Positions 36,255-52,584 of a DNA stretch of 64,000 bases are shown piece by piece. Positions within the stretch are counted from its first letter, which is position 1; each line of letters begins with the position of its first letter. The position numbers and the translations under genes were made by a program. The DNA comes from a bacterium (lineage in GTDB: Bacteria; Fidelibacterota; UBA2242). The notes below the pieces were generated by a model. That model saw nothing but the letters and a program-made list of their open reading frames with translations, was not told the DNA's origin and made no database searches. The stretch is taken from positions 54,366-118,365 of the forward strand of contig JAHJGX010000058.1 of assembly GCA_018824205.1 (NCBI GenBank), given 5' to 3'.

Positions 36255-38654
36255 ATGGAAGGAATGAACGGACAGGGTCAGAGGCCGGTGGATTTTCAGG
36301 AAAACGAAGTATCCCTGCAGGACTATTTACGAATCATTTTCCGGGGCCGCTGGATCATTGGTATCTCCTTTATCCTGATTATGACGGCCACGGTCTACTA
36401 TACTTTTACGGCCGCGCCGGAGTATGAATCCTCAACTTTGCTGATGCTGGCCGGGCGTCAGGGACAGACCTCGACGCTGTTCCAGAATCCCTTCATGATG
36501 GGCAATTACATGAAGGTCAACAACGAGATCGAAGTGCTCAAGAGCGACTACCTCAGCCGCCGGGTGGTTCAGCGCATGAAACAGTCCGCCTTTGCCGACA
36601 GCCTCTATATCCTGGGTACCCGGAAGTACCAGCAGAAAGGGGTCAGTCTCACCGATGTGATGGGCGCCGCCAAGTCCGGAATCAAGCGCCTGCTCCTGGG
36701 AGCTCCGGAGGAGGAACTGGCCGTAGTTGACAGTCTGGATCGGGCGATCGTCCGGGCCATCAAGGCTTCCATGACCGTGGAACCGATCCGGGATACCGAG
36801 GCCATTCGTCTGAAAATCAGTTCCATCGATCCCTATGAAGCCGCCTTCCTGGCCAACCTGATTGCCGATGAATACCTGCGTCTCGATGAGGAGTTTAACC
36901 TGGGTGAAGTAGTGGAGATGAAGGACTTTCTGGAGGAGCAGCTGGAGGACATTGAAAAAGATTTGACCGAATCCGAGGAGGCCCTGACGGAATTTCAAAA
37001 ACGGACCGGGGTCTATGTGCTGGATGAAACGGCCCAGACCCTGATCGATCAGCTCTCCACCTTTGAAGCCATCTATTACACCTCCCTGGCGGAATTGCAG
37101 GTCTCCCGGCAGAAACTGAAAAACCAGCAGGAGATGCTCAACGAACGGGAGAAGTGGATCGTCGATGAGGCGATTAATACCACCAATCCCCTGATTACCC
37201 AGCTGCGCAATGCCATTGCTGAAATCGAAGGGGAAAAAATAACCGTCATGATCGTCCAGGGCCTGGATCCCAAACACGAAGCCATCCGGGAGATGGACAA
37301 ACGTGGTGTAGAATTGAAAGCCAGGCTTTTCAAAGAGGCCCAGAATCTGACCAATTTAGGTCTGTCGCCCCAGGAACAGTCCCAGATTTCCCTGGAGCTG
37401 CTGCGCAATGTCCTGTTCAGCACCGTTGATATTATTGCTTTAGAGAGCAAGGGCAACGAATACAAGAAGCTGGTGGACCAATACAATAGCCGCTTGAACG
37501 AGCTGCCCGAACGCAGTCTGGAATTTGCCCGGCTGGACCGGGAGCGCCAGGTCAATGAAAAGTACTACATCCTGATGAAGACTAAATACCAGGAATCCCG
37601 CATCACCGAAGCCAGCAAGATCAGCAATATCCGCATTGTAGACCCGGCGACCCCTCCGGAAAAACCGATCAAGCCCAAAAAGAAAATGAACCTGCTGCTG
37701 GGGATGTTCATGGGTATTGGTCTGGGCGTGGGAATTGCCTTTGTGAAAGAGTATATGGACCACTCGGTACGCAGCAGCGAAGATCTGGACAAGCTGGGTT
37801 TGACGACGATATCCATTGTGCCGAAGATCGATATTAAGAGTTCCATGGAAAAGACGCGACAGGCCGCCGGTAAGATGGATGAAGAGGAGTATACCCTGAA
37901 ATCCAGGATGATCTCCCACTACGATCCCAAGTCCACAGTGGCCGAGGCCTACCGGACCCTGCGCACCAATATCCAGTTTATGAACCCTGATAAACCCTTC
38001 AGCAGCCTGGTGGTCTCCAGCGCCGGTCCCGGCGACGGCAAATCCACCACCGTGGTGAACATGGCCATCACCTTTGCCAACCTGGAGAAAAAAGTGCTGC
38101 TGATCGACGCGGATTTGCGGAAACCCGTGCTGCACAAGGTCTTTGAGCTGCCCCGGGCTCCGGGCTTGACCCAGCGTCTGGTCCAGGATTTGAATGACCA
38201 GGATGTGATCCGGGAAACCGAGGTGCCAAACCTCTACCTGGTAACCTGCGGGGATCTCCCGCCGAATCCCTCAGAACTACTAGCCAGCCAAAAACTCAAG
38301 GATTTTATAGTCCGGATGAAGGAAAAGTTTGATATCGTACTGATTGACTCACCGCCGATTATCGCGGTCACCGACGCCAGTATTCTGTCCAAGATGACCG
38401 ACGCCATTCTGCTGGTGGTCAAGGCCGGTAGTACGGATCTCCGGGTGCTGCGGCGCTCCATCGATCTGCTGAAACAGGTCAATACCAACCTAATCGGCGC
38501 GGTGCTCAACGGCGTCAATATCTCCAGTGGTTACGATTCCTATTACTACTACTATCACTACTATTACTATTATGCCGATACCGGCGAGAAGAAAAAGAGC
38601 GATAAAAAAGCCCGCCGGAAAAAACCCCGGCTGATTGATAAACTGCGCGGTTAA
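36255..38654 (+). CDS. polysaccharide biosynthesis tyrosine autokinase (Wzc/BY-kinase: Wzz chain-length domain + P-loop kinase + C-terminal Tyr cluster)
   Basis: N-terminal Wzz-like periplasmic domain flanked by 2 TM helices. Cytoplasmic Walker A (SAGPGDGKST), Walker A' and B, and a C-terminal Tyr-rich tail (YDSYYYYYHYYYYY). Confidence 0.8.
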   Translation: MEGMNGQGQRPVDFQENEVSLQDYLRIIFRGRWIIGISFILIMTATVYYTFTAAPEYESSTLLMLAGRQGQTSTLFQNPFMMGNYMKVNNEIEVLKSDYLSRRVVQRMKQSAFADSLYILGTRKYQQKGVSLTDVMGAAKSGIKRLLLGAPEEELAVVDSLDRAIVRAIKASMTVEPIRDTEAIRLKISSIDPYEAAFLANLIADEYLRLDEEFNLGEVVEMKDFLEEQLEDIEKDLTESEEALTEFQKRTGVYVLDETAQTLIDQLSTFEAIYYTSLAELQVSRQKLKNQQEMLNEREKWIVDEAINTTNPLITQLRNAIAEIEGEKITVMIVQGLDPKHEAIREMDKRGVELKARLFKEAQNLTNLGLSPQEQSQISLELLRNVLFSTVDIIALESKGNEYKKLVDQYNSRLNELPERSLEFARLDRERQVNEKYYILMKTKYQESRITEASKISNIRIVDPATPPEKPIKPKKKMNLLLGMFMGIGLGVGIAFVKEYMDHSVRSSEDLDKLGLTTISIVPKIDIKSSMEKTRQAAGKMDEEEYTLKSRMISHYDPKSTVAEAYRTLRTNIQFMNPDKPFSSLVVSSAGPGDGKSTTVVNMAITFANLEKKVLLIDADLRKPVLHKVFELPRAPGLTQRLVQDLNDQDVIRETEVPNLYLVTCGDLPPNPSELLASQKLKDFIVRMKEKFDIVLIDSPPIIAVTDASILSKMTDAILLVVKAGSTDLRVLRRSIDLLKQVNTNLIGAVLNGVNISSGYDSYYYYYHYYYYYADTGEKKKSDKKARRKKPRLIDKLRG
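38532..38573 (+). repeat. poly-tyrosine coding tract (13 Tyr among 14 codons, TAY repeats) at the Wzc C-terminus
   Basis: tat/tac codon run tactactactatcactactattactattat. Confidence 0.8.
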
Positions 38655-38742: not shown

Positions 38743-39528
38743 ATGCTGGAATTCGATCAGATATATCACCAGGATTGCATTGCCGGGATGCCGCAGATGC
38801 TGGATAATTGCATTGACCTGATTGTCACCGATCCCCCCTTTGCCATCGATTTCAAAGCAGTGCGGGGAAACTATAATCGAAAGGCTTCCCGGGTGTTGGA
38901 GGGATACAATGAAATCACAAAAGCGGATTATTCCGGGTTTACGGTCAGTTGGCTGGAGCAGGCCTGGCGCATTCTGAAACCTACGGGCAGTATGTACGTA
39001 TTTTCCGGCTGGAACAACCTCAAGGATATTCTGGTGGCCCTGGATGAGATCGGTTTTATCACCATCAATCACATTATCTGGAAATATCAGTTCGGAGTGG
39101 TGACCCGGCGAAAATATGTCAGTTCCCACTACCATTGTCTTTACGTCTGTAAGGACGATAAACTGCGCCCCTTTTACCCCTTTTCCCGCTATCAGAAGGA
39201 TGACCGGGACAGCGCCGGCCGCAGTCAGCATTACCGTGACAAAGAGGACGTCTGGACGATCAAGCGGGAGTACTGGGCCGGTGATCAAAAAACCCCCACC
39301 AAACTGCCCCGGGAACTGATTGAGAAAATTTTGAACTATTCCAGCATCCCGGGGGATCTGGTTTGTGACCCCTTTCTCGGCTCGGGCCAGGTGGCCTTTA
39401 TCAGCCGCCTGATGCAGCGCCGCTATATCGGTTTTGAGATTAATAAAGAATACTACGATTTTGCTAAAGCCCGCCTGGACAGCGGCCAGTATCGTCTTAA
39501 AACGACCGATCAGGGAAATCCATTTTAG
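38743..39528 (+). CDS. site-specific DNA methyltransferase, beta-class N6A/N4C type (N6_N4_Mtase family)
   Basis: Catalytic motif IV DPPF near the N-terminus, and SAM-binding motif I (FLGSGQ) near the C-terminus. This is the beta-class order. 261 aa. Confidence 0.8.
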   Translation: MLEFDQIYHQDCIAGMPQMLDNCIDLIVTDPPFAIDFKAVRGNYNRKASRVLEGYNEITKADYSGFTVSWLEQAWRILKPTGSMYVFSGWNNLKDILVALDEIGFITINHIIWKYQFGVVTRRKYVSSHYHCLYVCKDDKLRPFYPFSRYQKDDRDSAGRSQHYRDKEDVWTIKREYWAGDQKTPTKLPRELIEKILNYSSIPGDLVCDPFLGSGQVAFISRLMQRRYIGFEINKEYYDFAKARLDSGQYRLKTTDQGNPF

Positions 39529-39536
39529 TTTTAACA

Positions 39537-40520
39537 ATGGCAATACTATACAGTAGCAAGTGCCGGGACCGGCGACAGATTCTGGAATCCTTTTATCCTT
39601 TCACGAAACCCGCTGTGATTGAAGGGCTGATTATCGGCAATGATCTCGACGCTCTGCTGTCGGCGGCCCTGCTGAAGCAGCGCTACGGCTGGGATGTGGT
39701 GGCGGTTTACGACTATCGGAAACTCTGGGTGGACCAAAGGATTGCTGACAATGTGATTCAAAAACTGAAAAGCGGCGTCTATCTGGCTGTGGACCTGGAT
39801 ATCTACCGCAACGCTGTCCCCAGTATCGGTCATCATATTCTGCAACTCACTGAAAAAGACCGTCTGGAACAGCACGAGCAGACCCTGAATCCCAATCTCA
39901 TTTTCGGCGTGGACTGCCGGAATTTCCGGGCCAAGTATCCCCTGGGAACCATCCATTTTCTGCGCTGGCTCTTTGAAATGGAACTGGATCGCCGGGGCGA
40001 GCTGCTCTGCTGGCTGGCGGATTCCGCCTATATCAATGCCCAGAGCCATCGCTTTCGGGAAAATGTGTCCCATTGGCTCTACGAGTTCTTTGACTGGCCC
40101 CCTTTCTGGGAAATTTTCATCCTGCTGGATTCTGCGGATTATGAGGAACTGTTGGTCCGGGAGATTGGCCGGACTCTGGACAAGATCCTGATCACACCCC
40201 GGCCGGGACAGGTCAAATCCCGGCATAAATCCCTGAACGGCTGGCAGTGCCAGTGGTCGGATCCGGGAACCCAGGGGGAACAAATCCGGCAAATATTTGC
40301 CTTTATTCACGAACTCAGCGGCTGGCGGATTCCGGAATTGCCCAAGTTCTACAGCTGTATTACAGGCCAGCGGAAACGGATTAGCGTGGCGGAACTCCTG
40401 AAAGACTACGGAAGCCTGGATGAATTCCTAAATCGCGAGCATGTTTTTTCATATGCCTTTACCCATGCGCAGCTGCTGAATTATACTCAGTTTTCATCGT
40501 CTCCGGCCGGTAAAACCTAA
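39537..40520 (+). CDS. hypothetical protein (327 aa) immediately downstream of the DNA methyltransferase. Candidate cognate restriction endonuclease or specificity partner (no recognizable motif).
   Basis: Long ORF with coding-like composition. 8 nt downstream of the MTase stop on the same strand. Confidence 0.3.
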   Translation: MAILYSSKCRDRRQILESFYPFTKPAVIEGLIIGNDLDALLSAALLKQRYGWDVVAVYDYRKLWVDQRIADNVIQKLKSGVYLAVDLDIYRNAVPSIGHHILQLTEKDRLEQHEQTLNPNLIFGVDCRNFRAKYPLGTIHFLRWLFEMELDRRGELLCWLADSAYINAQSHRFRENVSHWLYEFFDWPPFWEIFILLDSADYEELLVREIGRTLDKILITPRPGQVKSRHKSLNGWQCQWSDPGTQGEQIRQIFAFIHELSGWRIPELPKFYSCITGQRKRISVAELLKDYGSLDEFLNREHVFSYAFTHAQLLNYTQFSSSPAGKT

Positions 40521-40674: not shown

Positions 40675-42807
40675 ATGAACAATTTTAAAGTGTCGATTTT
40701 AGTCGTTTTGTGTGTCGGATTGCTCGGTTCGCTGGCCCTGGCCGGACAGCACGACTATCCCAACTTCCCGCTGCACAACTGGGTCATGGTTGGTTTTCCG
40801 GTCACACCCACGGAGCAGAATCCCGATGCGGTCTGGGGGCCTTTTTTCGGCGGCAACCAGGGCAATGACAACGATGCTGATAATACGCTCTGGCGTTTTT
40901 CCCGTTGGCTGGCCCAGTACGACACCTATATCCGCTGGGGTGAATTAGACCGTGACACAGTCGGTGTTTTGACCGATTTTGGTGAACCCACCGCCATCAT
41001 CCCCGGCTGGGGTTACTGGTTCTATCAGAATCAGTTCAGTGATGTGACGTTTAATGTCAATGGGACCGAAGCCGACGACAGTGGTCCTTATTATATTCCC
41101 ATTGATCCGCCCCAGAACGGGCATCGCGGCCGTACCATGGTGGGCAACCCGTTTACCTTTCCCATTGACTGGAAAAATACCGAAGTGGTCATCGAGTCCG
41201 AAGAGATTGACACAGTGGTTTCTTTGATTGCGGCCAACGAGATGGGCCTGATCGATCAACATGCCTATCCCTGGAATGCGGGTCTGATGAACGGCGACAT
41301 CAACACCTATATCCCTCTGAATGCAACTGATGGTGGCGCGGTTCCGAAATGGCAGGGATTTTGGGTCGAACAACTCAATGAAAATGTAAATTATTACATC
41401 AAGTATAAGGTTGAACACACTCAGGGCGATGACAACTGCAAGTATCATGATGCCCATTCCGGTCATGTCAGTGAGAAAGATTATCTCGGTCAGGATGGCA
41501 TCCGTGAAACTGATCTCTTTACCATGGTGGTTGAAGATCCCAATGAGATCATTATAGTATCAACCCAGGCTCAGGGTTTTTCCAATGACGGCAGTTTCCA
41601 TTGGCCGGATCAGACCTATTTTCTGAACAATCAGGGCTTTGGCATTGAATTCATCAGCATGACTGTCGGGGCCGAGTATACTACCTATGAATTTACCGTA
41701 ACCGCGGAAGTTGACGACCCCAATTTTAAACAACGCATGATGCACGTCCACTTCTTCTTTGGGGATAACTCCAACGTGGTTTATCCGGCCACACCCAACC
41801 ATGGCAATGATGAACCCGGCAATGATGACAATCGCGGGAAGAACGATAATGGTAATGCCGCTGAGATTACGATCCTGCGGTCCACTGAAACAGTGGTCGG
41901 CCAGTCAACGAATGTTACGCTGCAACTCAAAGTACCACCCACGACTGTGGGCCTGGCCAAAGCGGCCGCTAAAGTAAGTCCGCGAGATGTGGTGGAAACC
42001 GTCAGCGACCGGGATTGGGTTATTCCGATGAGCATTGCCACAAGCGACGGCACCGTGAAGGACAACTTTAATGCGATTGGTGTTCTACAGGCTGCCTCCG
42101 ACGGTTACGATACTCATGATATTGCCCAGTGGACCCCCCAGGGAACATTCCTGGAAATCTATTTTCCTCACGATGACGTCAGCAAACCGCTGCATTACTG
42201 GTATGAAAAACCCAGCAGTGTCTGTTATGACATGCGGGCCGATTCGACCCACAAAGACTGGATTATGCGGGTTGCGGCCTATACCGATGTTGTAAGTCCT
42301 TTGTCAGTCCGTAATAAAACGGTGACCATCCGCTGGGATGCTTCCGAAGTCAATGCTGACTGGGAACTGCAGCTCCAGGCGGCCGATTATACCGTTCTGG
42401 TTGAGGATATGAAAACCGTCAGCGAATATACCTTTACCACGGCAGATAATAACTACAGCGTTCAGGATTTTGTTATTATGACGACATTTACACCGAACCT
42501 GAACAGTATTGAAGCACCACCGGTGGCGGAGACCTATGCTTTGCTGCAGAACTATCCCAACCCCTTTAACCCGACCACGACCATTCAGTATCGGATAACT
42601 CGGAACGAATGGGTACAACTGGCGATCTATAACCTGCAGGGTGAACTGGTAAAAACCCTCTGGTCCGGCGATAAATCAACCGGCGATTATCAGGTCCAAT
42701 GGAATGGGACCGATAATCAGGGACGGCCAGTGGCCAGCGGGGTCTATCTGACAAAACTGCTGACGCCGACAATGGCCCGTTCGAATAAAATGTTGTTACT
42801 TAAATAA
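40675..42807 (+). CDS. large secreted protein with a T9SS (Por) C-terminal sorting domain. Paralog 1, function unknown.
   Basis: Signal peptide (MNNFKVSILVVLCVGLLGSLALAG). C-terminal ~80 aa match the T9SS CTD pattern (NYPNPFNPTTTIQY...VYLTKL...). The start was reset to ATG 40675 with AAAGGGGG upstream. Confidence 0.7.
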   Translation: MNNFKVSILVVLCVGLLGSLALAGQHDYPNFPLHNWVMVGFPVTPTEQNPDAVWGPFFGGNQGNDNDADNTLWRFSRWLAQYDTYIRWGELDRDTVGVLTDFGEPTAIIPGWGYWFYQNQFSDVTFNVNGTEADDSGPYYIPIDPPQNGHRGRTMVGNPFTFPIDWKNTEVVIESEEIDTVVSLIAANEMGLIDQHAYPWNAGLMNGDINTYIPLNATDGGAVPKWQGFWVEQLNENVNYYIKYKVEHTQGDDNCKYHDAHSGHVSEKDYLGQDGIRETDLFTMVVEDPNEIIIVSTQAQGFSNDGSFHWPDQTYFLNNQGFGIEFISMTVGAEYTTYEFTVTAEVDDPNFKQRMMHVHFFFGDNSNVVYPATPNHGNDEPGNDDNRGKNDNGNAAEITILRSTETVVGQSTNVTLQLKVPPTTVGLAKAAAKVSPRDVVETVSDRDWVIPMSIATSDGTVKDNFNAIGVLQAASDGYDTHDIAQWTPQGTFLEIYFPHDDVSKPLHYWYEKPSSVCYDMRADSTHKDWIMRVAAYTDVVSPLSVRNKTVTIRWDASEVNADWELQLQAADYTVLVEDMKTVSEYTFTTADNNYSVQDFVIMTTFTPNLNSIEAPPVAETYALLQNYPNPFNPTTTIQYRITRNEWVQLAIYNLQGELVKTLWSGDKSTGDYQVQWNGTDNQGRPVASGVYLTKLLTPTMARSNKMLLLK

Positions 42808-42841
42808 TTAATTGAAATCTAATAACATAAAGGAATTTGTT

Positions 42842-42979
42842 ATGAAAGAGAAAATCTTAGAAAACGAAAAAGTCGATGTGAAAATTGAGTATGATGCGCC
42901 GCGTATTATTCAGAAGAGAGAAATCGTGATTGAATTGCAGACCAATTATATTCCCGATGAACCGCCGCCTCCTATGTGA
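42842..42979 (+). CDS. small ORF (45 aa) encoding a candidate RiPP precursor peptide with a lasso-type leader motif (YxxPRI...LQTN) and a variable C-terminal core (YIPDEPPPPM)
   Basis: Not in the ORF track (under 60 aa). ATG preceded by AAGGA and a 7-nt spacer. Shares motif Y-x2-P-R-I-x2-K-x4-I-[DE]-[LI]-Q-T-N at identical spacing with the second small ORF at 45460. Confidence 0.45.
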   Translation: MKEKILENEKVDVKIEYDAPRIIQKREIVIELQTNYIPDEPPPPM

Positions 42980-43038
42980 GAATAGTTGGGATTAATGAGA
43001 CATATTCAAATCATGAAACCTATGAAAGTGAGAATAAT

Positions 43039-45441
43039 ATGAAAACGAGAACATTTTTAACAATGACAGCAATCGGCGTGATGCTTCTGTCCGGTCTGGC
43101 ATTATCCCAGCAGACCATCACTTATGAGAATTTTCCGAAAGCCAAGATGATGCTGATCGGAATTCCGCTGAATTTTACGGACAGTGATCCGGGCGCAGTA
43201 CTGGAACCAGAGTTTGGCGAGCAAATCAGAGATGGTAGTATCTATCCCTACTGGCGCTTTTCCCGCTGGGATATTGGCGACCACACTTATTACCGCTATG
43301 GCGAAATGGAATTTACCTGGGATCACGATGCACAGAATTATAAGCCTGCAACAGAAAAGACCGAGCAGGGCAGTCCCCATGCCATTGAACCGGGCTATGG
43401 CTACTGGCTGGCCCAGAGTTCGGGCAATACTGTGGACACTTTATCGCTTACCGGTATACCCGCTGATCAAGATGCGCCGGTTTATGTGCCCGTTGATCCG
43501 CCGGAAACAGTTCAGGGACATGCCTATCCCGGAATCACCATGGTGTCGAATCCATTTCTGTATACCATTGACTGGGTAAATGCCTATTACCGGATAAATA
43601 GTGGCGATGAAGTCACGCTGGAGCAGGCCGTCAATATGGGATTGGTGTCCCAATATGCCTATCCCTGGGACGGCGCTCAGTACACTCCTTTTAATATGAC
43701 CGATGGAGGAAATCTGAAGATCTGGGACGGTTACTGGGTGGAACAGCTGAATCCCGAACCGACCGAATATGTGGTCTATGATGTGGCCTGTGACATTGAA
43801 AGCAGCGAAGGCGGCGGCGGGGAGTGCGGCGAATGTGACGGACAGGTTTCCTATCTGAAACTGCTATACAACGGTATTTATGACAATGCCAAGATTAAGG
43901 TTTATGATAACAAAAGTAATAAACTGTACTATGGTACTGTCCAAAAGGGCGGTGAATTTGAGTTTAGCGGAAAGCAGGGCGGCGAGCGGATGGGCCCGAA
44001 AATTAAGATTTACATCAGTAATGCCGATAAATGCAGCGGCTGCGGCGAAAATTTTTGTGAAATCCATACCAGCTGTTCCGTACCCATTGGAATTGGTCAG
44101 GTATGGGGGCCGTTTACCATTACCGCAGGCGCAAGCCGCAACGGCGGGGCTTTATGCCCGATCGGTGAAACCAATAAACCGATTATCAAATTTTATGATG
44201 CCGAAGTCAATGGTTCGGACAGCGATCTGGGCGAAGGCGGCGTGATTGAAACCGACCGGTTCATTATTTCCCTTTACAATGATGATGACGGTGAACTGTC
44301 TTTTAAAACCTTTACCGTGAACGATGATTCCTCAGCCTGGATTGCGCTGACTCAGGAGGGCACGGCCGTGTCCGATGGCCAGGGATTTACTGTCACTTTG
44401 ATCAGTGAATCCGAAGGCACCTATACCATTGATGTAGCCAGTACTGGATCTGCGGTATTGGAGGCAGTCAAGTTCCGTTTTGGCGATGATCAGACTCTTG
44501 ATTCACCGGAATGCGGCGAAACCTTTACTTCGACCCGGCAACTACTGGGCGGTGTACAGGTTTCAACACTTGAATTGAAAACCCCACCCACCAATGTGGG
44601 CGGTGGAAAACTGGCAAAGTCATCAGAAAAAATTCCTCATCCTTTGAAATCCGAATCGGTTGCCGAATGGATAGTACCAATAAGCGTGAGTAGCAGCAGC
44701 GGTGAACTGATCGATAGTTACAACGGCTTTGGCGTCAAAGAGGGCGCTTCGGCCACATTTGACCTGCTAGATGCCCGTAACTTTACGCCCAATCTGGATG
44801 CCTGGGTAGATATCTACTTCCCCCATCACAAAGAAAATGATCCGCTGAATTACTGGCCGCAAAAACCGATGAAAGCCGCCTATGATGTACGTCCGGAAGC
44901 CGATGTTATCTCCTGGGATATGGAAATGTCTTATGTTAATGCCGGCAGCCAGAAGTTTACGATCAACTGGGATGCCAGTCAATTCCCGGCGGATCTGGAA
45001 CTGACGTTTGTTGATTTTAGCACCGATGAACGAATTGATATGCTGACAGTTTCGGAATATGCGGTGACCACGCCGGCGGATCCCTACGGTACGCTTTATT
45101 TTGCCGTAGTGGCCGCTCTGCCCGAAGAGGCCGTTGGAATTGATCGTGATATCACCAAACCGGCGGAATTCCGTCTGCTGGCGAATTACCCGAATCCGTT
45201 CAATGCGACGACGCGACTTCTGTACACATTGCCGGAAGCTGCACAGGTAAAACTGACAATCTATAACCTGAACGGAACTTTGGTGAATACTCTGGTGAAT
45301 GGAATACAGCCGGCCGGTTATTACGGAATGGATTGGGATGGCCACGATCAGAGCGGCGCAATGGTCAGCACCGGCGTCTATATCTACCGGCTCCAGGCCA
45401 ATGGCCAGGTATCAACCCGCAAAATGCTACTAATGAAGTAA
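43039..45441 (+). CDS. large secreted protein with a T9SS C-terminal sorting domain. Paralog 2, function unknown.
   Basis: Signal peptide (MKTRTFLTMTAIGVMLLSGLALSQQ) and C-terminal T9SS CTD (NYPNPFNATTRLLY...VYIYRL...). Shares several conserved blocks with paralog 1 (NPF.[FY][TP]IDW, AYPW, YW[VE]EQLN, YFPH..x.PL.YW.[EQ]KP). Confidence 0.7.
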   Translation: MKTRTFLTMTAIGVMLLSGLALSQQTITYENFPKAKMMLIGIPLNFTDSDPGAVLEPEFGEQIRDGSIYPYWRFSRWDIGDHTYYRYGEMEFTWDHDAQNYKPATEKTEQGSPHAIEPGYGYWLAQSSGNTVDTLSLTGIPADQDAPVYVPVDPPETVQGHAYPGITMVSNPFLYTIDWVNAYYRINSGDEVTLEQAVNMGLVSQYAYPWDGAQYTPFNMTDGGNLKIWDGYWVEQLNPEPTEYVVYDVACDIESSEGGGGECGECDGQVSYLKLLYNGIYDNAKIKVYDNKSNKLYYGTVQKGGEFEFSGKQGGERMGPKIKIYISNADKCSGCGENFCEIHTSCSVPIGIGQVWGPFTITAGASRNGGALCPIGETNKPIIKFYDAEVNGSDSDLGEGGVIETDRFIISLYNDDDGELSFKTFTVNDDSSAWIALTQEGTAVSDGQGFTVTLISESEGTYTIDVASTGSAVLEAVKFRFGDDQTLDSPECGETFTSTRQLLGGVQVSTLELKTPPTNVGGGKLAKSSEKIPHPLKSESVAEWIVPISVSSSSGELIDSYNGFGVKEGASATFDLLDARNFTPNLDAWVDIYFPHHKENDPLNYWPQKPMKAAYDVRPEADVISWDMEMSYVNAGSQKFTINWDASQFPADLELTFVDFSTDERIDMLTVSEYAVTTPADPYGTLYFAVVAALPEEAVGIDRDITKPAEFRLLANYPNPFNATTRLLYTLPEAAQVKLTIYNLNGTLVNTLVNGIQPAGYYGMDWDGHDQSGAMVSTGVYIYRLQANGQVSTRKMLLMK

Positions 45442-45459
45442 AGATTGGATCAGTATTTT

Positions 45460-45582
45460 ATGAATCGTGACCAGCATACACATTTGAAAATGCCCTATAT
45501 ACCGCCCCGAATTACGGAAAAAACGAAACTGAAGATTGACATCCAGACAAATTCAACCGCTGATGGCGGGTATCTTTCCTGA
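45460..45582 (+). CDS. small ORF (40 aa) encoding a second candidate precursor peptide with the same leader motif (YIPPRI...IQTN) and a different core (STADGGYLS)
   Basis: Not in the ORF track. Lies 18 nt downstream of T9SS paralog 2 and 20 nt upstream of the S24 peptidase gene. The leader is homologous to the 42842 peptide and the core is divergent. Confidence 0.45.
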   Translation: MNRDQHTHLKMPYIPPRITEKTKLKIDIQTNSTADGGYLS

Positions 45583-45602: not shown

Positions 45603-45998
45603 TTGAAAGAAACCATCCAGATACAATCTCACGGAAATAGCATGCTCCCGGTGATTCAGCCGGGAGCAGCGCTGTCTATAGAGCCCGGAACTTATGGAGA
45701 GCAGAATCCCAAAGCCGGTGAGATTATTGCTTTTCGGAGAGGCGAGGGGCTGGTCTGTCACCGATTTTACGGGACCATCGGGATTAGCCGCCGACGCTAT
45801 GGGATTGAGAAAGGCGACCGCAACCGGATTGCCGGACTGTTTCGCCTGGAGGATTACATCGGGCGCCTGATAGCAGTGGATGCACGGGCTGCCGCCGAAC
45901 TGTTCCGAATTGTTAAAAAACCCTCTGTATTTGTACTATTTGGGGGCCTGATCCGGGAGCATCTGGACTGGATCTGCCGGAAATCGCCCACCAGCTAA
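45603..45998 (+). CDS. S24/S26-type (LexA/signal-peptidase-like) Ser-Lys peptidase, standalone
   Basis: GNSMLP motif (catalytic Ser context) near the N-terminus, 131 aa. TTG start. Confidence 0.55.
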   Translation: MKETIQIQSHGNSMLPVIQPGAALSIEPGTYGEQNPKAGEIIAFRRGEGLVCHRFYGTIGISRRRYGIEKGDRNRIAGLFRLEDYIGRLIAVDARAAAELFRIVKKPSVFVLFGGLIREHLDWICRKSPTS

Positions 45999-46059
45999 CT
46001 CAATTACATTTTTAAAAACTTTTCTTTTCCTCTTCAATTTTCCTGATTATATTAATTCA

Positions 46060-47232
46060 ATGACCGATTATAAAGTCAAATTATTGACACTGTGCCGAAT
46101 TATCAGCGGAATTCCTGTTTCTAAAGACAGTCTCTCAGGGAGTGTATCTGGAGATAATCGTCCACTGCTTGATCTGCTGCAGTATCACCAGGTTGCGGCC
46201 CTGGCCTATTATTACCGGAAGCCCCTGGCCGATACCGGAGTCCACTTTGATCCGGAGACACTGGCCAACTTAAAAAGCTATACCCTGTTGAACATCAGCC
46301 GGGTGATGGTCTATGAACATTATTTGAAGCATCTGGATGATCTGATGCAGTCCTATTCCGTTGATTATCGTCTGCTCAAGGGCATTGTAACAGCCAAATC
46401 CGTCTATCCCGAGGATTACCTGCGGGCCTTCGGGGACGCGGATATTTTAATCCGGCCGGAGAATCTGAAAACCGTTGAAGCCCTGCTGGAAAAGGACAGT
46501 TTCAAGCATGCCGACGATCTCTACCGGGTTTTTCCCGATGAGATTATTCAAAAATACTCCTTTGCCCAGCACTTTCTACGCAGTGAGCCGAACAATGTGG
46601 CCGTGGATTTGCACCTGAATATGAGTAGCCGCCTGCACCCCTTTCAGTTTGATTCCGATGATTTCTGGGACAGCAGCATCTCCTTTCAGCTGGATGGACA
46701 CGAACTGAAGACTTTTGATCCGGAACACCAGGGTGTGTATGCCATTTACCATGCCTTTAAGCATTATTTTTTCAAATTGATCTGGTTTATTGATGCCTTT
46801 CTGCTGCTGGACCGGGCCGACCTGGACCGGAGGAAATTTCAGGCCCTGATAAAAAAATACAAGCTATCAAAGTTGCTAAATTATTACGCATCCATCACTC
46901 TGGAACTGTTCGGGCGCCTGCCGGCTGTGATTGGGGACTATAGAATCGAAGACCGGGAAGCACACAGCCTGATCAACAGCCAGGCGATTCTGTCCGGGTT
47001 TTTACCCTATTCGCCTTCCCGGGCCCGCTTGCTGCTGCCCATGTATTATCTGAAAGGTCCATTCGTACGTTTTGGTTTTCTGTGGCGGCAACTCTTTCCG
47101 CCCATGGAGACCGTCAGGGATTTTTATGTGGGTAAAAATTCCGGGAAAGGTGTCTTCAGGTATGCTAAATTACGCTGCAAGGCCATTTCAGACCTCTGCT
47201 TAAATAAAACCAAAGAGGAGTACTCAAGTTGA
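46060..47232 (+). CDS. nucleotidyltransferase family protein (NTP_transf_5 / 'uncharacterized nucleotidyltransferase' type found in lasso-peptide-like clusters)
   Basis: 390 aa with a Pol-beta-like GD..D..I core (FGDADILI) and a family-typical C-terminal helical region. Confidence 0.6.
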   Translation: MTDYKVKLLTLCRIISGIPVSKDSLSGSVSGDNRPLLDLLQYHQVAALAYYYRKPLADTGVHFDPETLANLKSYTLLNISRVMVYEHYLKHLDDLMQSYSVDYRLLKGIVTAKSVYPEDYLRAFGDADILIRPENLKTVEALLEKDSFKHADDLYRVFPDEIIQKYSFAQHFLRSEPNNVAVDLHLNMSSRLHPFQFDSDDFWDSSISFQLDGHELKTFDPEHQGVYAIYHAFKHYFFKLIWFIDAFLLLDRADLDRRKFQALIKKYKLSKLLNYYASITLELFGRLPAVIGDYRIEDREAHSLINSQAILSGFLPYSPSRARLLLPMYYLKGPFVRFGFLWRQLFPPMETVRDFYVGKNSGKGVFRYAKLRCKAISDLCLNKTKEEYSS

Positions 47233-47489
47233 AGTACGTACATTGCAACAATATCGATTGGAAAGAATTTGATGACGAGAGTGTGCTCCTCAATCTCTCC
47301 ACAGGCTACTATTTTCGCCTGAACCCGGTGGGCACTTTTATCTGGCCGCTGATCAGCCGGGAGCATACTATTAGCGGCATTGCCGATCGCGTGGTGGAAA
47401 AATTTGACGTGTCCCAACACCAGGCTAAAACCGATATGCACGATTTTATCGAACAGTTGCTGGCAGAACAGCTCATCCAAAAAGCCTGA
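47229..47489 (+). CDS. PqqD family protein (RiPP recognition element, peptide chaperone)
   Basis: 86 aa with the typical PqqD/RRE signature (ESVLLNLSTGYYFRLNPVGTFIW). Overlaps neighbours at both ends. Confidence 0.75.
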   Translation: MKYVHCNNIDWKEFDDESVLLNLSTGYYFRLNPVGTFIWPLISREHTISGIADRVVEKFDVSQHQAKTDMHDFIEQLLAEQLIQKA

Positions 47490-48445
47490 TGCAGATGCCA
47501 GATGATTATCGCTTTACTGAAGAACTACCCTTTTTAGATTTCCAGATTCGCTGGCATTCCAATCAGCAGCTGCCCATCGATATCCTGGGGGAACAGTTTC
47601 TCTACAGCAGCCTGTCAGCCGGCGCCGATGTCCGGGACAGTTTTGATTTTTACATCGATATAATCGAGGATTCCGACAGCGATGCCTCATGGAATACGGC
47701 GCTCCAGCACCGTTACGATGCTAATGAAAAATTGCTGTATTTAAGCTATCTCGACGGGGCCATCCAGGTTACCGTGGATTATGGGCAGAAGCGGGTCACG
47801 GCCAAAATCATGGAGCGGGCCCTGGTTTACCGGGCGGCGCTGGGCAACTGGGTGCTCACGATCCCCCTGAGTGAACTGCTGAAACTGCACGGCATCTACC
47901 TGATGCATGCGGCCTGCCTGGTGAAGGATGGCAAGGGGATTCTGTTCGCCGGCCGCTCGGGCGTCGGTAAAACCACCCTGGCCATCGGTCTTCTGACCAT
48001 GGGCTGGCAGCTGGTCTCCGACGATGAAATCTTCCTGCAGTCCAACCCGGAACTGCTGGCACACGGAGGCCCCGAACGGGCCAAAGTCAGCTGGCCTACC
48101 TGGCGGCGCTTCAGTTATTACCTGGGGGAGCAGGACCGTTATAACGGCAAGCAAATTATCCATCTGGGCGATCATTTTCCGGGACAGGTGACTAATCGTC
48201 ACGCCATTACGGCGGTCTGCTTTGTGGGGCAGTCTGACCGCGTAACGATCTGTCCCCTGGATCCCATGGATGCCTACCGGCGGCTCCTGTCGGTGGCCTT
48301 TCTGACGTCGGAGCCGTCCCTGACCCGGCAGAACAATGATTTTCTCTATCGCTTCAGCCGGGAAATTCCGGCCTATGGACTGCAGACCGGCCTGGATTTC
48401 AAGGCCCTGGATGCCCACCTGGCCCAATCTATCCTGCATCAATAA
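47489..48445 (+). CDS. HprK-related kinase (HPr kinase C-terminal-domain-like P-loop protein)
   Basis: Walker A GRSGVGKTTLA embedded in an HprK_C-like fold (ILFAGRSGVGKTTLAIGL..VSDD), 318 aa. Confidence 0.7.
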   Translation: MQMPDDYRFTEELPFLDFQIRWHSNQQLPIDILGEQFLYSSLSAGADVRDSFDFYIDIIEDSDSDASWNTALQHRYDANEKLLYLSYLDGAIQVTVDYGQKRVTAKIMERALVYRAALGNWVLTIPLSELLKLHGIYLMHAACLVKDGKGILFAGRSGVGKTTLAIGLLTMGWQLVSDDEIFLQSNPELLAHGGPERAKVSWPTWRRFSYYLGEQDRYNGKQIIHLGDHFPGQVTNRHAITAVCFVGQSDRVTICPLDPMDAYRRLLSVAFLTSEPSLTRQNNDFLYRFSREIPAYGLQTGLDFKALDAHLAQSILHQ

Positions 48446-48598
48446 ATTTTCTTTGCATTTCTAAAAAAATCAATTTAAATCAAATAACTAACGGGCAAGT
48501 TCTATAAAGAGGTTTCGAGGTGCTTAAACAGTGAGTTTGAGCAGTTCCTTGAAACCTTAGATTATAGCCCCTATGCAAATAGGAGTATGGAGGGGATT

Positions 48599-48757
48599 AT
48601 GGTTCATCGTAAATGCCCCCGTTGCGGGGCGCAGCAGTTTCGCAAAGTGCGCCGCAAACGCTGGATGTGTTATCTGCCCTTTTCAAGCTGCTGGGAATGT
48701 TACTGTAAATTTCTGCTGGTGTTTGGGATTATTGTCTGGCGGCACAATTATACCTGA
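48599..48757 (+). CDS. possible small Cys-rich zinc-ribbon/TM protein (52 aa: MVHRKCPRCGAQQFRKVRRKRWMCYLPFSSCWECYCKFLLVFGIIVWRHNYT)
   Basis: Alternative frame to the ORF-track 48573-48782 ORF. CPRCG...C..C.C arrangement plus a hydrophobic tail. GGAGGGG lies 5 nt upstream. Confidence 0.2.
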   Translation: MVHRKCPRCGAQQFRKVRRKRWMCYLPFSSCWECYCKFLLVFGIIVWRHNYT

Positions 48758-49300
48758 TGCCGGGATTTTGGAAACACCGTAATGTGACGGAAATTACAGA
48801 TATTGGTACTGAACATTTGGAAAGAATCTAACTATGCGCGGGGAGACTGTTTAATTAATATGAAGAAGATATTGGAATTGTTTATTTTACTTAGCAATGC
48901 CGGCGATTTATTGCCGCTACTATAGTCTTCGTAAATAGTGCAAATATTATTGCGAAAACCGCATATTATTAGTAACATAAGCACAGATTGTAGAGACTTG
49001 AAACGGGATTCATTTATTGATATTTTTTTTACTCCGATCTAATATAAATTATTGAAGATTCCCTTTGGGATATGACGAAAAAGATTTGGACATTCGGTAA
49101 AATCGCGGCATTGAATAACGCCTTTAACGGAGATGTATTATCAGGTGATTTTTATCACTGGATTTAAATAAAAATAAGTAGAAATTATAGGTTCTACAAT
49201 TTGCCCGCTCAGCCCATGTAGCTGAGGGGGCGAAGCCCTGCCCCGGCGGATGCAATTCCCCGGCCGGAAAAATGCGTAAGTAATTAATAATAGGAAAGAT

Positions 49301-50437
49301 ATGAAAGTACCCCTGCTGGATCTGAAAGCGCAACTGGACACAATCCGCGAAGACGTGAAAGAAGTTGTCAACGAGGTTCTGGAGTCCACCCGCTATATCA
49401 TGGGGTCCAAGGTTACGGAGCTGGAAGAACAGATTGCGGCCTATTGCGGCGCCCGCTACGGGATCGGCGTATCTTCAGGGACCGATGCGCTGCTGATCGC
49501 CCTGATGGCCCTGGATCTGCAACCCGGTGACCTGGTTCTCACCACACCCTACTCTTTTTTCGCCACCGCCGGCGTCGTCTCCCGGCTGAATGCCATTCCC
49601 GTCTTTGTGGATATTGATCCCGGAACCTATAATATCGATCCCGGGCAGATAGCCCAATGGTTTGCCGACAATCCGGATAAAATTGAGCGGGTCAAGGCCA
49701 TTATTCCCGTGCATCTCTACGGCCAGTGCGCCGATATGGACCCGATTCTGGAACTGGCCGAAACATATAATATTCCCGTCATTGAAGACGCGGCCCAGGC
49801 CATCGGCGCCGGATATCCTTCTAAGAATGGATTGAAACGGGCCGGATCCATGGGTAGCATGGGCTGTTTTTCCTTTTTCCCCAGTAAGAACCTGGGGGGG
49901 ATCGGTGACGGCGGCATGGTGACCACCAACGATGCGGCCCTGGCGGAAAAACTGGTCAAACTCCGCAACCACGGTTCCCATCCCAAGTATTACCACGCTC
50001 TAATCGGCGGCAATTTCCGCCTGGACCCGATTCAGGCGGCGGTCCTGTCGGTAAAATTAAAACACCTGGATGCCTGGCATGCCGGGCGGCAGGCCAATGC
50101 GGCCTATTACGATGCGCATCTGAATGTCCCGGGACTGACAAAACCGATGGTTGCCTATCAGCGGGACTACCATATTTACAACCAGTATATTCTGTCAGTG
50201 CCGGAACGCCGGGACGCCCTGGTGGAATACCTGCATGCCCGGGACATTGGGTGTGAAGTCTACTACCCGGTGCCCTTTCATCAGCAGGAATGTTTTCAGT
50301 ACCTGGGCTATAAAACCGGGGATTTCCCCCATAGTGAATTCGCCGCTGAGCATACCATCGCCCTGCCTATCTATCCGGAACTGACCGATATGATGCAGCA
50401 GTATGTGATTGAAAAGATTCAAGAATTTTATCAATAG
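49301..50437 (+). CDS. DegT/DnrJ/EryC1/StrS family PLP-dependent sugar aminotransferase (WbpE-like)
   Basis: N-terminal IPFLDLKAQ-like start, conserved Lys region and sugar aminotransferase fold. 378 aa. Confidence 0.9.
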   Translation: MKVPLLDLKAQLDTIREDVKEVVNEVLESTRYIMGSKVTELEEQIAAYCGARYGIGVSSGTDALLIALMALDLQPGDLVLTTPYSFFATAGVVSRLNAIPVFVDIDPGTYNIDPGQIAQWFADNPDKIERVKAIIPVHLYGQCADMDPILELAETYNIPVIEDAAQAIGAGYPSKNGLKRAGSMGSMGCFSFFPSKNLGGIGDGGMVTTNDAALAEKLVKLRNHGSHPKYYHALIGGNFRLDPIQAAVLSVKLKHLDAWHAGRQANAAYYDAHLNVPGLTKPMVAYQRDYHIYNQYILSVPERRDALVEYLHARDIGCEVYYPVPFHQQECFQYLGYKTGDFPHSEFAAEHTIALPIYPELTDMMQQYVIEKIQEFYQ

Positions 50438-51053: not shown

Positions 51054-51647
51054 ATGAGTATAAAAAAAGATTTCTTTGTTCACGAATCTGCCTATGTGGA
51101 TGATAATGTGACGATCGGCGCGGGGACCAAAATCTGGCACTTTTCCCACATTCAGTCAGGTTCGAAAATCGGCCGGAAGGTCTCCATTGGCCAGAATGTC
51201 AATGTGGGCAATAATGTGAGAATTGGTAATTTTGTGAAGATTCAGAACAATGTCTCGGTCTACGAAGGGGTGACCCTGGAGGATTATGTCTTCTGCGGCC
51301 CCTCCATGGTATTTACCAACGTGATCGATCCCCGCTGCAAATATCCCCAGCGGGGGGCGGAATTTTACCACAAGACCCTGGTGAAAACCGGGGCCTCCAT
51401 CGGTGCCAATGCCACGATCGTTTGCGGCAATATCGTTGGACGGCATGCCTTTATCGGCGCCGGGGCGGTGGTAACCAAAGATGTACCCGATTACGCCCTG
51501 ATGCTGGGAGTGCCAGCGAAACGGGTCGGCTGGGCCTGCGAGTGCGGTGAAATTTTACCGAAGTTTGACCAGCACGTGAACTGTCCACGCTGCGGGATAA
51601 CGTATAAGTTACAGGGAGAAATTCTTATCGCAAAGAGCGCAGAGTAG
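51054..51647 (+). CDS. hexapeptide-repeat sugar N-acetyltransferase (WbpD-like UDP-2-acetamido-3-amino-2,3-dideoxy-uronate N-acetyltransferase family)
   Basis: Left-handed beta-helix hexapeptide repeats (IGxxxxI) throughout, 197 aa. Confidence 0.85.
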   Translation: MSIKKDFFVHESAYVDDNVTIGAGTKIWHFSHIQSGSKIGRKVSIGQNVNVGNNVRIGNFVKIQNNVSVYEGVTLEDYVFCGPSMVFTNVIDPRCKYPQRGAEFYHKTLVKTGASIGANATIVCGNIVGRHAFIGAGAVVTKDVPDYALMLGVPAKRVGWACECGEILPKFDQHVNCPRCGITYKLQGEILIAKSAE

Positions 51648-52144: not shown

Positions 52145-52237
52145 TATGAAAAACATAGCCCTTATCGGCTGCGGGTGGATTGCCGGGAAACACCTGGAAT
52201 CCATTGCCCCGTTACAGCCTGAAGAGCGCGGACTTTA
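52145..52237 (+). pseudogene. 5' fragment (30 codons) of a Gfo/Idh/MocA oxidoreductase gene paralogous to the 53121 gene
   Basis: MKNIALIGCGWIAGKHLESIAPLQPEERGL* versus MKTIALLGCGRISGKHLESIAQL at 53121. A 27-nt identical stretch (ccgggaaacacctggaatccattgccc) is present. Confidence 0.5.
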
Positions 52238-52290
52238 GCTCGCTCCGGCGGGAAGAAGCCAAAACAGTGCTTTTTGAAACGAACAAAAAG

Positions 52291-52584
52291 ATGATCAACC
52301 GTTATCTCAACGAAATCCGAAAAATAATCGAGAAAGAAATGCAGGATGAAAATGTTGCCATAGCACTTTTTGGCTCTTTTGCCATGGGCACTCAGCAGCT
52401 TGCATCGGATATTGATATTGCACTGATTCCCAAAGGGAAATTGAATAAATCCAAAGTTGCCGATTTACGGGAAAAACTGACCGAACTCACGGTTCCTTAT
52501 TCCGTCGACCTGGTTGATTTTGACCGGGTCTCAGAACAATTCAAGAAAATAGCGTTAAGAGACGCCCAATGGTGGAGGAAGTAG
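52291..52584 (+). CDS. nucleotidyltransferase (MNT-type antitoxin, Pol-beta superfamily)
   Basis: GSxxxG...DxD motif (FGSFAMGTQQLASDIDIAL). The start was reset to MINRY (ATG 52291). Overlaps the downstream HEPN gene. Confidence 0.7.
   Translation: MINRYLNEIRKIIEKEMQDENVAIALFGSFAMGTQQLASDIDIALIPKGKLNKSKVADLREKLTELTVPYSVDLVDFDRVSEQFKKIALRDAQWWRK

Follow-up and report, generated by a model that had tools for sequence, protein, structure and literature searches.

The 64,000-nucleotide stretch of DNA analyzed here (hereafter the window) comes from an uncultured marine bacterium of the Fidelibacterota (Marinimicrobia; assembly GCA_018824205.1, contig JAHJGX010000058.1, positions 54,366 to 118,365 of the forward strand). 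Within a surface-polysaccharide locus it carries an island in which large proteins predicted to be type IX secretion system (T9SS) cargo are interleaved with short peptide genes. A map of open reading frames (ORFs) places these genes in a tight row on the plus strand: a 710-amino-acid (aa) secreted protein (cargo 1, or cargo A; 40675..42807), a 45-aa ORF (42842..42979), an 800-aa paralog of the first protein (cargo 2, or cargo C; 43039..45441) and a 40-aa ORF (45460..45582). The first peptide gene starts 34 nucleotides (nt) past the stop codon of cargo 1 and the second 18 nt past that of cargo 2. Directly downstream of this row lie four genes (45603-48445) for a candidate peptide-maturation module, and the peptides are probably its substrates.

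Both cargo proteins begin with signal-peptide-like hydrophobic N-termini, read directly from the sequence, and end in a T9SS type A sorting domain (TIGR04183; 26.7 bits for cargo 1 and 38.3 bits for cargo 2, curated cutoff 23), and thus combine the Sec signal peptide and C-terminal domain that define type-A cargo. No component of the T9SS machinery (PorU/V/K/L/M/N and SprA) turned up in the ORFs scanned, which are those of the window and not of the full genome. The two proteins share 40% identity over their N-terminal ~250 residues (BLASTP 1e-51) and 32% over their C-terminal ~470 residues (5e-42), which bears out their description as T9SS-sorted paralogs in a preliminary description of this DNA. 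In cargo 1 the N-module (~25-245) is followed, after a middle stretch that varies, by the C-module (~445-605) and the type-A C-terminal domain (~625-710). Cargo 2 contains the same two-module cassette together with a Cys-rich insert (residues 282-362) and the T9SS C-terminal domain. Conserved blocks include AYPWN/AYPWD, WQGFWVEQLN/WDGYWVEQLN and IYFPH..PL.YW..KP. These had been quoted correctly, but a further block said to end in TIDW reads NPFTFPIDW in cargo 1. The Cys-rich insert, reported earlier as peculiar to the second paralog, corresponds to Pfam DUF7467 (1.1e-10) and is common to cargo 2 orthologs (loci L003 and L004, protein P0017; L numbers denote related loci throughout). A structure model of the cargo (pLDDT 84) matches generic beta-sandwich folds only, and on this model the large proteins are non-catalytic beta-sandwich chains. 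The model agrees with the earlier remark that no catalytic domain is recognizable, and makes it unlikely that the large proteins process the peptides, as the preliminary description had allowed. Both members of the unit are paralogous between the copies and their order is kept, as expected of a tandem duplication of a gene unit, and the duplication is old rather than recent.

The two small ORFs encode a type-1 precursor peptide (MKEKILENEKVDVKIEYDAPRIIQKREIVIELQTNYIPDEPPPPM) and a diverged, type-2 peptide (MNRDQHTHLKMPYIPPRITEKTKLKIDIQTNSTADGGYLS), which are homologous to each other (pairwise E-value 2e-6); the former is identical to P0035 (NCBI MBU1064747.1). A profile built from an alignment of 11 peptides read from related contigs recovers 57 clusters from 5.8 billion proteins, with E-values down to ~1e-17, and the clusters with named sources come from Marinimicrobia (Fidelibacterota or Neomarinimicrobiota) or from unclassified metagenome bins. 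Scanning one genome per species for [LI]PDEPPPP[LM] confirmed eight loci, five of them titled Fidelibacterota or Neomarinimicrobiota and three titled Bacteroidetes bacterium, uncultured bacterium or bacterium, and a metagenome scan gave 20 further loci. No NCBIfam family, the lasso-leader models included, matches the peptides. Type 1, the dominant class, consists of ~15 variable residues followed by Y-x-x-P-x-I-x-x-K-x-E-(I/L)-x-(I/V)-(D/E)-L-Q-T-(N/G)-x-(L/I)-P-D-E-P-P-P-P-(L/M)-stop. Across 32 sequences there is no variation at Y17, P20, L32, T34, D39, E40 or any of the four prolines, and Y17, P20, I22 and T34 are invariant in alignments of 11 to 32 peptides. In the A-unit peptide of L035 (5894-6049) six residues are inserted between the conserved Thr-Asn and the tail (…DLVTNIEETPSLPDEPPPPI), and the spacing from T34 to PDEPPPP is therefore not fixed. 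The window's second peptide belongs to a type-2 class that has lost the PDEPPPP tail and keeps a conserved leader (Y-x-x-P-R-I-T-E-K...I-D-I-Q-T). Type-2 tails vary in sequence and length (NSTADGGYLS in the window; NSVPDGGYHIRKDG, EDSYESAYLPKFQDQN, DFAGPEMTPDQREM, NSLPGELIL and others elsewhere), end in Ser in four of about ten variants, the window's among them, and occur in the loci read either after a DUF7467-type cargo or just before the peptidase gene.

Twenty-six distinct DNA versions of the tail LQT[NG]x[LI]PDEPPPP[LM] were compared: every Leu, Gln, Thr, Pro, Asp and Glu codon varies synonymously although the residues are fixed. Selection therefore acts on the peptide, and the peptides are under purifying selection. 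In most type-1 copies, including that of the window, a Shine-Dalgarno-like motif (AAGGA-like) lies 7-10 nt before the ATG. The weak ribosome-binding context and diverged tail of the window's second peptide might suggest chance or decaying ORFs in intergenic DNA, but the 57 clusters with their profile E-values, the varied synonymous codons of the invariant residues and the calling of these ORFs as genes by independent gene callers on many contigs make this extremely unlikely, and for the type-1 peptides it is already refuted. The earlier view of the two peptides as homologous and leader-type is thereby upheld. Fusion of peptide and cargo by read-through or frameshift was also considered and ruled out, as the peptide lies in another frame, has its own start and is cargo-free in some loci. 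Scans for promoters and terminators gave nothing above chance level, and Rfam matched nothing within the window.

The position of the proline run invites a different reading of the small ORFs, in which PPPP before the stop codon would stall ribosomes, in a manner dependent on EF-P or on proline, and tune translation of the next gene, the peptide itself being functionless. Ribosomes are known to stall at consecutive prolines, and mgtP is an example of a proline-rich leader ORF that controls genes downstream of it; here 20-60 nt separate PDEPPPP(L/M)-stop from the start codon that follows. However, Y17, P20, I22, L32 and T34 are far from the stall site and yet invariant, and they match a leader bound by recognition elements of pathways for peptides that are made ribosomally and then modified post-translationally (RiPPs). 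The type-2 peptides keep the leader although the proline run is lost, distant homologs described below possess twin-arginine translocation (Tat)-type signals and long tails after the proline run, and in L042 the peptide gene faces a gene on the opposite strand. A purely regulatory role is thus very unlikely.

What enzymes, then, might act on such peptides? All four genes of the adjacent module lie on the plus strand, and the first (45603..45998) encodes a putative small soluble peptidase of S24/S26 type (131 aa), a candidate for leader removal. In an alignment of nine homologs the motifs G-x-S-M-L-P, V-C-H-R and E-K-G-D-x-N are invariant, a pattern that fits the Ser/His (SipW/archaeal) branch of S26, and its best, sub-cutoff NCBIfam matches are archaeal-type signal peptidase I and the nickel superoxide dismutase (NiSOD) maturation protease. 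It resembles the soluble S26 maturation proteases (the NiSOD protease SodX; SipW/archaeal-type signal peptidase I) in being small, in its Ser motif GxSMxP and His-containing second motif, and in predicted clipping of an N-terminal leader. It differs in having no evident transmembrane anchor and in scoring below all curated cutoffs of hidden Markov models for them (TIGR02228, 25.2 bits against 51.85; 18.1 against 63.25); the Peptidase_S24 match is likewise weak (19.4 against 23.3). Next is a 390-aa nucleotidyltransferase of the NTP_transf_5 family (PF14907; 46060..47232), matched above the Pfam cutoff (1.2e-38) and syntenic in every related locus that reaches it. PDB sequence searches returned nothing for NTP_transf_5 and nothing significant for the S26-like protein. 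The third gene (47229..47489) encodes an 86-aa PqqD-family peptide chaperone, that is, a RiPP recognition element (RRE; PF05402, 65.1 bits against a cutoff of 23.4), and the NCBIfam model that it fits best, lasso_PqqD_Bac (lasso peptide biosynthesis PqqD family chaperone), gives 59.6 bits, below the cutoff of 80. The last (47489..48445) encodes a 318-aa HprK-related P-loop kinase-like protein of the ScmC/HprK_rel family (Hpr_kinase_C 33.7 bits against 33.3). It contains a Walker A motif, GRSGVGKTT, and an SDD motif, and the GRSGVGKTT...SDD segment aligns with solved HPr kinases. Matches to HprK_rel_B/A and ScmC fall below cutoff, and homologs are tagged PF27840 ScmC. The homolog search for this kinase reached only members of at least 40% identity, and those with source names are Fidelibacterota/Marinimicrobia.

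As in RiPP loci generally, the precursor genes here stand beside an RRE and modifying enzymes, and the four-gene module together with the YxxPxI leader best explains the nature of the peptides. The preliminary description recognized the units of cargo and peptide but ended them at 45582, leaving out the adjacent module, which is present wherever related polysaccharide-locus contigs reach far enough. From its sequences the system would be a pathway of RRE-dependent peptide maturation in which the class of precursor, the peptidase partner and the secreted-protein partner are all new. In the literature searched there is no prior description of it, and no paper connects PqqD or HprK-like modules with T9SS or with peptides of this kind.

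The nearest characterized relatives are the clusters for phosphorylated and phosphoglycosylated lasso peptides (paeninodin, pseudomycoidin and Bsf), where likewise a PqqD/B1 protein, an HPr-kinase homolog and a nucleotidyltransferase adjoin small precursors; the system resembles the tailoring half of such a pathway. In those systems the B1/PqqD protein binds the leader, the HPr-kinase homolog phosphorylates the C-terminal Ser of the precursor and the nucleotidyltransferase adds a hexose to the phosphate (PMC8498205). B1 also accelerates phosphorylation, and the leaders have Tyr(-17), Pro(-14), Leu(-12) and Thr(-2), with Ile or Val also known at -2 in phosphorylated precursors (PMC10368454). 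In Bsf it is Ser3 that is phosphorylated by the HPr-kinase homolog (PMC8498205; PMC10368454). The peptides described here share the Y-x-x-P-x-(L/I) leader, a conserved Thr near the leader/core junction and, in some type-2 members, the C-terminal Ser that is a known kinase acceptor. Their leader thus shows the lasso pattern of Tyr(-17), Pro(-14), Leu(-12) and a conserved -2 residue, usually Thr, but the spacing from I22 to T34 is 12 rather than 10. They differ in their type-1 core, which does not vary and does not end in Ser, and in their linkage to T9SS proteins and a polysaccharide locus. Neither a lasso cyclase (Asn_synthase) nor a transglutaminase-like B2 peptidase was found among the 39 window ORFs scanned with Pfam, which included all those of at least 430 aa, or among the called genes of the related loci; an S24/S26-like gene stands in the peptidase role. 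Lasso cores need room for a macrolactam of 7-9 residues, with a small first residue and Asp/Glu at 7-9, and for a tail. Here the core, TNYIPDEPPPPM or YIPDEPPPPM, is 10-12 residues long and, according to where cleavage falls, has its Asp/Glu at positions 4-5 or 6-7, so that no 7-9-membered ring is possible. With the cyclase and the B2 protease absent and the core too short, a lasso peptide as product was ruled out.

Among uncharacterized systems the nearest is HPr-rel-A (TIGR04352 and TIGR04353), which likewise pairs an HprK-related kinase with a PqqD chaperone, is computationally defined and has no described function. The window kinase scores 41.0 bits against TIGR04352, below the cutoff of 200, and the window PqqD does not match TIGR04353 (cutoff 35 bits) at E<=0.01. 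Neither substrate peptides nor T9SS partners of HPr-rel-A are described in the papers searched. A broader parallel is offered by PqqA of the PQQ pathway and MftA of the mycofactocin pathway, conserved-core precursors handled by a PqqD-type chaperone. Like these, the type-1 peptides are short and vary at the N-terminus but hardly at all in their C-terminal core, and the likeness suggests a conserved small product rather than a hypervariable toxin. Their enzymes and likely product are entirely different, however, and the window has no radical-SAM enzyme.

Related Marinimicrobia loci show how constant this arrangement is. A peptide follows a cargo gene in ~20 distinct related loci, with one to three units per locus; the preliminary description had named such adjacency in relatives as a check on its proposal. 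Every Marinimicrobia contig of the polysaccharide locus that is long enough has the order Wzc, DNA methyltransferase, an uncharacterized protein of 325-329 aa, one or more cargo/peptide units, S26-like peptidase, NTP_transf_5, PqqD and HprK-like kinase, followed by genes for a Wzm/Wzt-type ABC transporter or by DegT. The order holds down to 34-50% identity between cargo proteins and 40% between kinases. The cargo comes in three subtypes: A, of ~710 aa; B, of ~1,120 aa, which is extended at its N-terminus; and C, of ~800 aa, which in the window's clade contains DUF7467. They occur with their peptides as A-B (L001, L007, L008 and L035), A-C (the window, L003 and L004) or A-B-C, the last with a type-2 peptide after C (L019/L021). 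The leaders of peptides after A and after B are subtype-specific in L001, L007 and L035 (...SPAI(I/L)EKCEITADLQTN vs ...PQIL..(D/E).LR..LQTG), and cargo and peptide are therefore inherited as a pair. The repeating unit proposed earlier is accordingly a heritable one, but it is not strict. A type-1 peptide without cargo A directly follows the 327-aa gene in L013, L025 and L026, peptides occur in tandem after a cargo (L014/L027) or as a type-1/type-2 pair directly before the peptidase gene (L015 and L034), and in L010 a 940-aa C-type cargo has no peptide after it. What is constant across the loci is a set of at least one peptide, at least one cargo gene and the four enzymes.

Two links follow from these loci. 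The peptides go with the module because they adjoin it when the preceding cargo is absent (L013, L025, L026 and L029, the last beginning with peptide, S26-like peptidase, NTP_transf_5, PqqD and kinase) and because peptide tandems stand just before the peptidase gene (L014, L015 and L034). The cargo goes with the module because it does so in every Marinimicrobia polysaccharide-locus copy that reaches far enough, and also in the distant loci L041 and L042.

Should the peptides instead be escorts or chaperones, each would bind its neighbouring cargo, for example through contact between the polyproline tail and the Trp/Tyr-rich blocks, and aid its folding, secretion or assembly with no involvement of the PqqD module. 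The tight cargo-then-peptide order, with gaps of 18-35 nt, would suit such a role, as would L006, where a cargo and peptide pair has no module nearby, and the richness of the invariant cargo residues in Trp, Tyr and Phe. Known proline-motif binding domains are likewise rich in these residues. The peptides, however, have no signal peptide while the cargo is Sec-exported, which would limit contact to the cytoplasm, and their leader matches an RRE-binding motif with an RRE gene adjacent. Moreover, the type-1 core is identical whichever cargo type precedes it, with no cargo-specific covariation, and peptide counts do not always equal cargo counts. On these grounds an escort function seems decidedly unlikely.

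The cassette itself extends beyond the phylum. A profile of it with the C-terminal domain left out finds 1,134 proteins at E<=1e-3 among 1.84 billion representatives, and in most of the best matches the N-module (profile ~25-245) and C-module (~445-605) recur together. No Pfam model covers the cassette, the invariant residues of which are rich in Trp, Tyr and Phe. Named members come from Fidelibacterota, Latescibacterota and Calditrichota. Pfam scans of ten distant cassette proteins found T9SS-type C-terminal domains in eight and diverse heads (Laminin_G_3, NosD/beta-helix, FG-GAP and disaggregatase-related). The window's cargo proteins are close to the minimal form of the cassette family.

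Four distant cassette loci were looked up (L041, L042, L043 and L038). In L041, whose cassette protein has an identical sequence annotated as Candidatus Latescibacteria/Latescibacterota at NCBI, the order is DegT, Glycos_transf_4, PqqD, a 302-aa HprK-related protein, a cassette cargo with a NosD head, a 69-aa poly-Pro ORF and NTP_transf_5. In L042, a contig of no assigned phylum, it is a 97-aa poly-Pro ORF, an opposite-strand tubulin-tyrosine-ligase (TTL)-family gene, a NosD-head cassette cargo, a PrmA-like methyltransferase, PqqD and an HprK-related protein. The kinases score 96 bits (L041) and 122.9 bits (L042, its best match) against TIGR04352; with TIGR04353 (cutoff 35) the L042 PqqD passes at 42.9 bits and that of L041 fails at 25.6. 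The small ORFs of L041 and L042 and one on the minus strand of L006 are built alike: they start from a Tat-like RR-x-F-(L/I)-K-(K/R), continue with (Y/F)-x-x-P-x-I-x-T-F and, beyond a spacer, have five to seven prolines near the C-terminus. That of L041 matches TIGR01409 above cutoff. In L042, and roughly in L041, an Ala-x-Ala-like site lies 16-17 residues after the Tyr, which is the spacing of the lasso leader/core junction. The L042 peptide ends ...PPPPPPPTPGDDDDDDDDSWF, and the TTL-family gene (6538-7698, minus strand) and the PrmA-like protein methyltransferase gene (11302-12342) that join its cassette cargo, PqqD and HprK-like genes hint at further modifications of the peptide C-terminus. 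The minus-strand ORF of L006 (18597-18830; ...SRRNFLKKMASTAVFTVPTIHTFSV...PPLPPPPPPGFGGD) represents a second kind of small ORF and sits between two TPR-like genes near a pair of cargo and type-1 peptide. L006 comes from a Marinimicrobia single-cell genome and lies at a different site, adjoining thyX and M1 peptidases; its cargo of 1,119 aa is accompanied by a type-1 peptide and by a cassette protein with a NosD head.

These distant loci bear on whether cargo and peptides are simply independent neighbours, the peptides and four enzymes forming a self-contained RiPP cluster for a signal or an antimicrobial, and the T9SS proteins being unrelated and paired with them by inherited synteny. All Marinimicrobia copies of the polysaccharide locus share the chromosomal context RuvA, GcvT, FtsK, LolA and Wzc, and vertical inheritance alone could keep the order. 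The cassette protein of L043 lacks the module, and in L013 and L026 peptides persist with no preceding cargo. Against this, cassette cargo, poly-Pro peptide and PqqD/HprK-like genes recur in different orders in L041 and L042; the association is thus repeated in two of three informative distant loci, which argues against mere inherited synteny. Units also expand and contract as cargo and peptide pairs, from one to three per locus, the A- and B-unit peptides keep their paralog-specific leaders across lineages, and an invariant core is atypical for an antimicrobial. Independence of the two components is accordingly judged unlikely, though it deserves some weight.

Taken together, the favoured explanation, which we hold to be probable, is a leader-guided, RiPP-type maturation of a short conserved peptide that acts together with the T9SS-secreted cassette proteins. 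PqqD would first bind the lasso-type leader motif Y-x-x-P-x-I. The HprK-related kinase and NTP_transf_5 would then decorate the peptide: on analogy with the phosphorylated and phosphoglycosylated lasso systems, it would be phosphorylated and afterwards receive a sugar or a group derived from a nucleotide. The likeliest acceptor in type-1 peptides would be Thr34, since no other hydroxyl is invariant there, and in type-2 peptides it would be the C-terminal Ser. Two cleavage registers may be envisaged: in one, T34 would be residue -2 and the core YIPDEPPPPM; in the other, which follows the canonical count from Tyr(-17), T34 would be +1, L32 would be -2 and the core TNYIPDEPPPPM. The soluble S26-type peptidase would finally remove the leader to give a linear peptide of ~10-12 residues that ends in LPDEPPPP(L/M) and has no lasso ring. 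That the core does not vary speaks for a product with a conserved structural or physiological role and against a toxin under diversification. At the envelope the mature proline-rich peptide would serve as a ligand, linker or anchor in concert with the secreted cassette proteins. What the data establish is gene content, homology, conservation, purifying selection, the leader motif and a linkage that recurs in two contigs outside Fidelibacterota; RRE binding, the chemistry, the cleavage site and any physical link between peptide and cargo are inferred, and the partnership of peptide and cassette is proposed from their linkage. The large proteins may bind the peptides, a possibility supported by the conserved linkage, which is found also outside the phylum, and the invariant cassette positions, rich in Trp and Tyr, would be suited to holding a polyproline helix.

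Several observations weigh against this favoured explanation. No Ser or Tyr is conserved in the type-1 cores, nor do these end in Ser, and with no canonical acceptor the lasso-type chemistry is therefore not simply transferable. Three of the four enzymes (kinase, PqqD and peptidase) fall below curated NCBIfam cutoffs. The Marinimicrobia loci contain no dedicated peptide exporter, and their peptides have hydrophilic N-termini with neither a signal peptide nor a T9SS C-terminal domain. The earlier suggestion that the peptides are secreted together with the large proteins through T9SS is for these last reasons unlikely. Nor is the association universal: the L043 cassette gene has no peptide nearby and no module in the 9 kb downstream or the 2.9 kb of contig upstream, the L006 cargo and peptide have no module in the 6.6 kb before the contig end, and in L038 no peptide follows the cassette gene, on a contig too short to judge.

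The wider surroundings of the island are those of surface-glycan synthesis. A Wzc-like gene (36255-38654) lies upstream, followed on the plus strand by a type II-like N6/N4 DNA methyltransferase (38743-39528), the one gene that PADLOC recognized, and by a 327-aa protein of no known family (39537-40520), with no Pfam, NCBIfam, PADLOC or PDB match. The two, which may or may not belong to the system, could be a restriction-modification pair, but such stable synteny would be unusual for one: the methyltransferase and/or the 327-aa gene is immediately upstream of the cargo/peptide block in every Marinimicrobia copy of the polysaccharide locus that reaches there, down to ~45% identity. In L001 (18894-20982) and L007 (13229-15239) a Wzm/Wzt-type ABC transporter (ABC2_membrane and ABC_tran/Wzt_C), which could be an exporter of glycan or a glycan conjugate, directly follows the HprK-like gene. 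The window has no such transporter at that position. Instead an 855-nt gap (48446-49300) separates the kinase-like gene from DegT, with no convincing ORF and no Rfam match, and within it the stretches ~48614-48700 and ~49137-49246, the latter just upstream of DegT, are conserved at the DNA level in diverged loci and may be a promoter, 5' untranslated region or small RNA. Beyond the gap, on the plus strand, are genes of a Wbp-like nucleotide-sugar context: a DegT aminotransferase (49301-50437), a hexapeptide acetyltransferase (51054-51647), a GFO/IDH/MocA dehydrogenase (53121-54149) and a UDP-GlcNAc 6-dehydrogenase (54433-55731; 582 bits against the TviB cutoff of 592), with GDP-mannose dehydratase and GDP-fucose synthase after this set. 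Amid these sugar-biosynthesis genes sits a toxin-antitoxin-like nucleotidyltransferase/HEPN-type pair (52180-52973; Polbeta/NTP_transf_2 and NTase_sub_bind/HepT-like), and similar pairs occupy the same place in L004 and L008. At the window end (62175-63539) is a protein with Schlafen AlbA_2, HATPase_c_4 and Fic-like C-terminal domains, which is unrelated to the finding.

The adjacent Wbp-like genes, and the known amide linkage of cargo C-termini to a Wbp/Vim sugar, prompt a further reading that builds on peptide maturation. In Porphyromonas gingivalis and Tannerella forsythia the C-terminus of T9SS cargo is amide-bonded to an amino acid on a Wbp-derived sugar (PMC7468200). The window resembles this type-A anchoring in that C-terminal-domain cargo adjoins Wbp-like genes. 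It differs in that VimA adds a single Ser or Gly there, whereas here a ribosomal peptide and a PqqD/kinase/nucleotidyltransferase module are present. Instead of being a free product, the matured peptide might, once its leader is off, be coupled by the kinase and nucleotidyltransferase to a Wbp-type sugar of the surface polysaccharide, to yield a peptide-bearing glycan that would serve as acceptor or anchor for cassette cargo attached by the T9SS sortase, with a Tat-type route to the periplasm in other phyla. We give this reading little probability. If true, the peptide would be a ribosomal counterpart of the single Ser or Gly on the linking sugar of P. gingivalis and T. forsythia.

For the Marinimicrobia and other phyla of the Fibrobacteres-Chlorobi-Bacteroidetes group, the loci described here may connect the maturation of ribosomal peptides with type IX secretion and with surface polysaccharide loci, and they define a widespread, unannotated two-module cassette present in >1,000 proteins. 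The computationally defined HprK-related/PqqD systems gain a candidate substrate peptide and a candidate partner protein. If the favoured explanation holds, the pathway would be RiPP-like and would draw on the lasso combination of leader, PqqD, kinase and nucleotidyltransferase without making a lasso, and it would bear on how T9SS cargo is anchored outside Bacteroidota.

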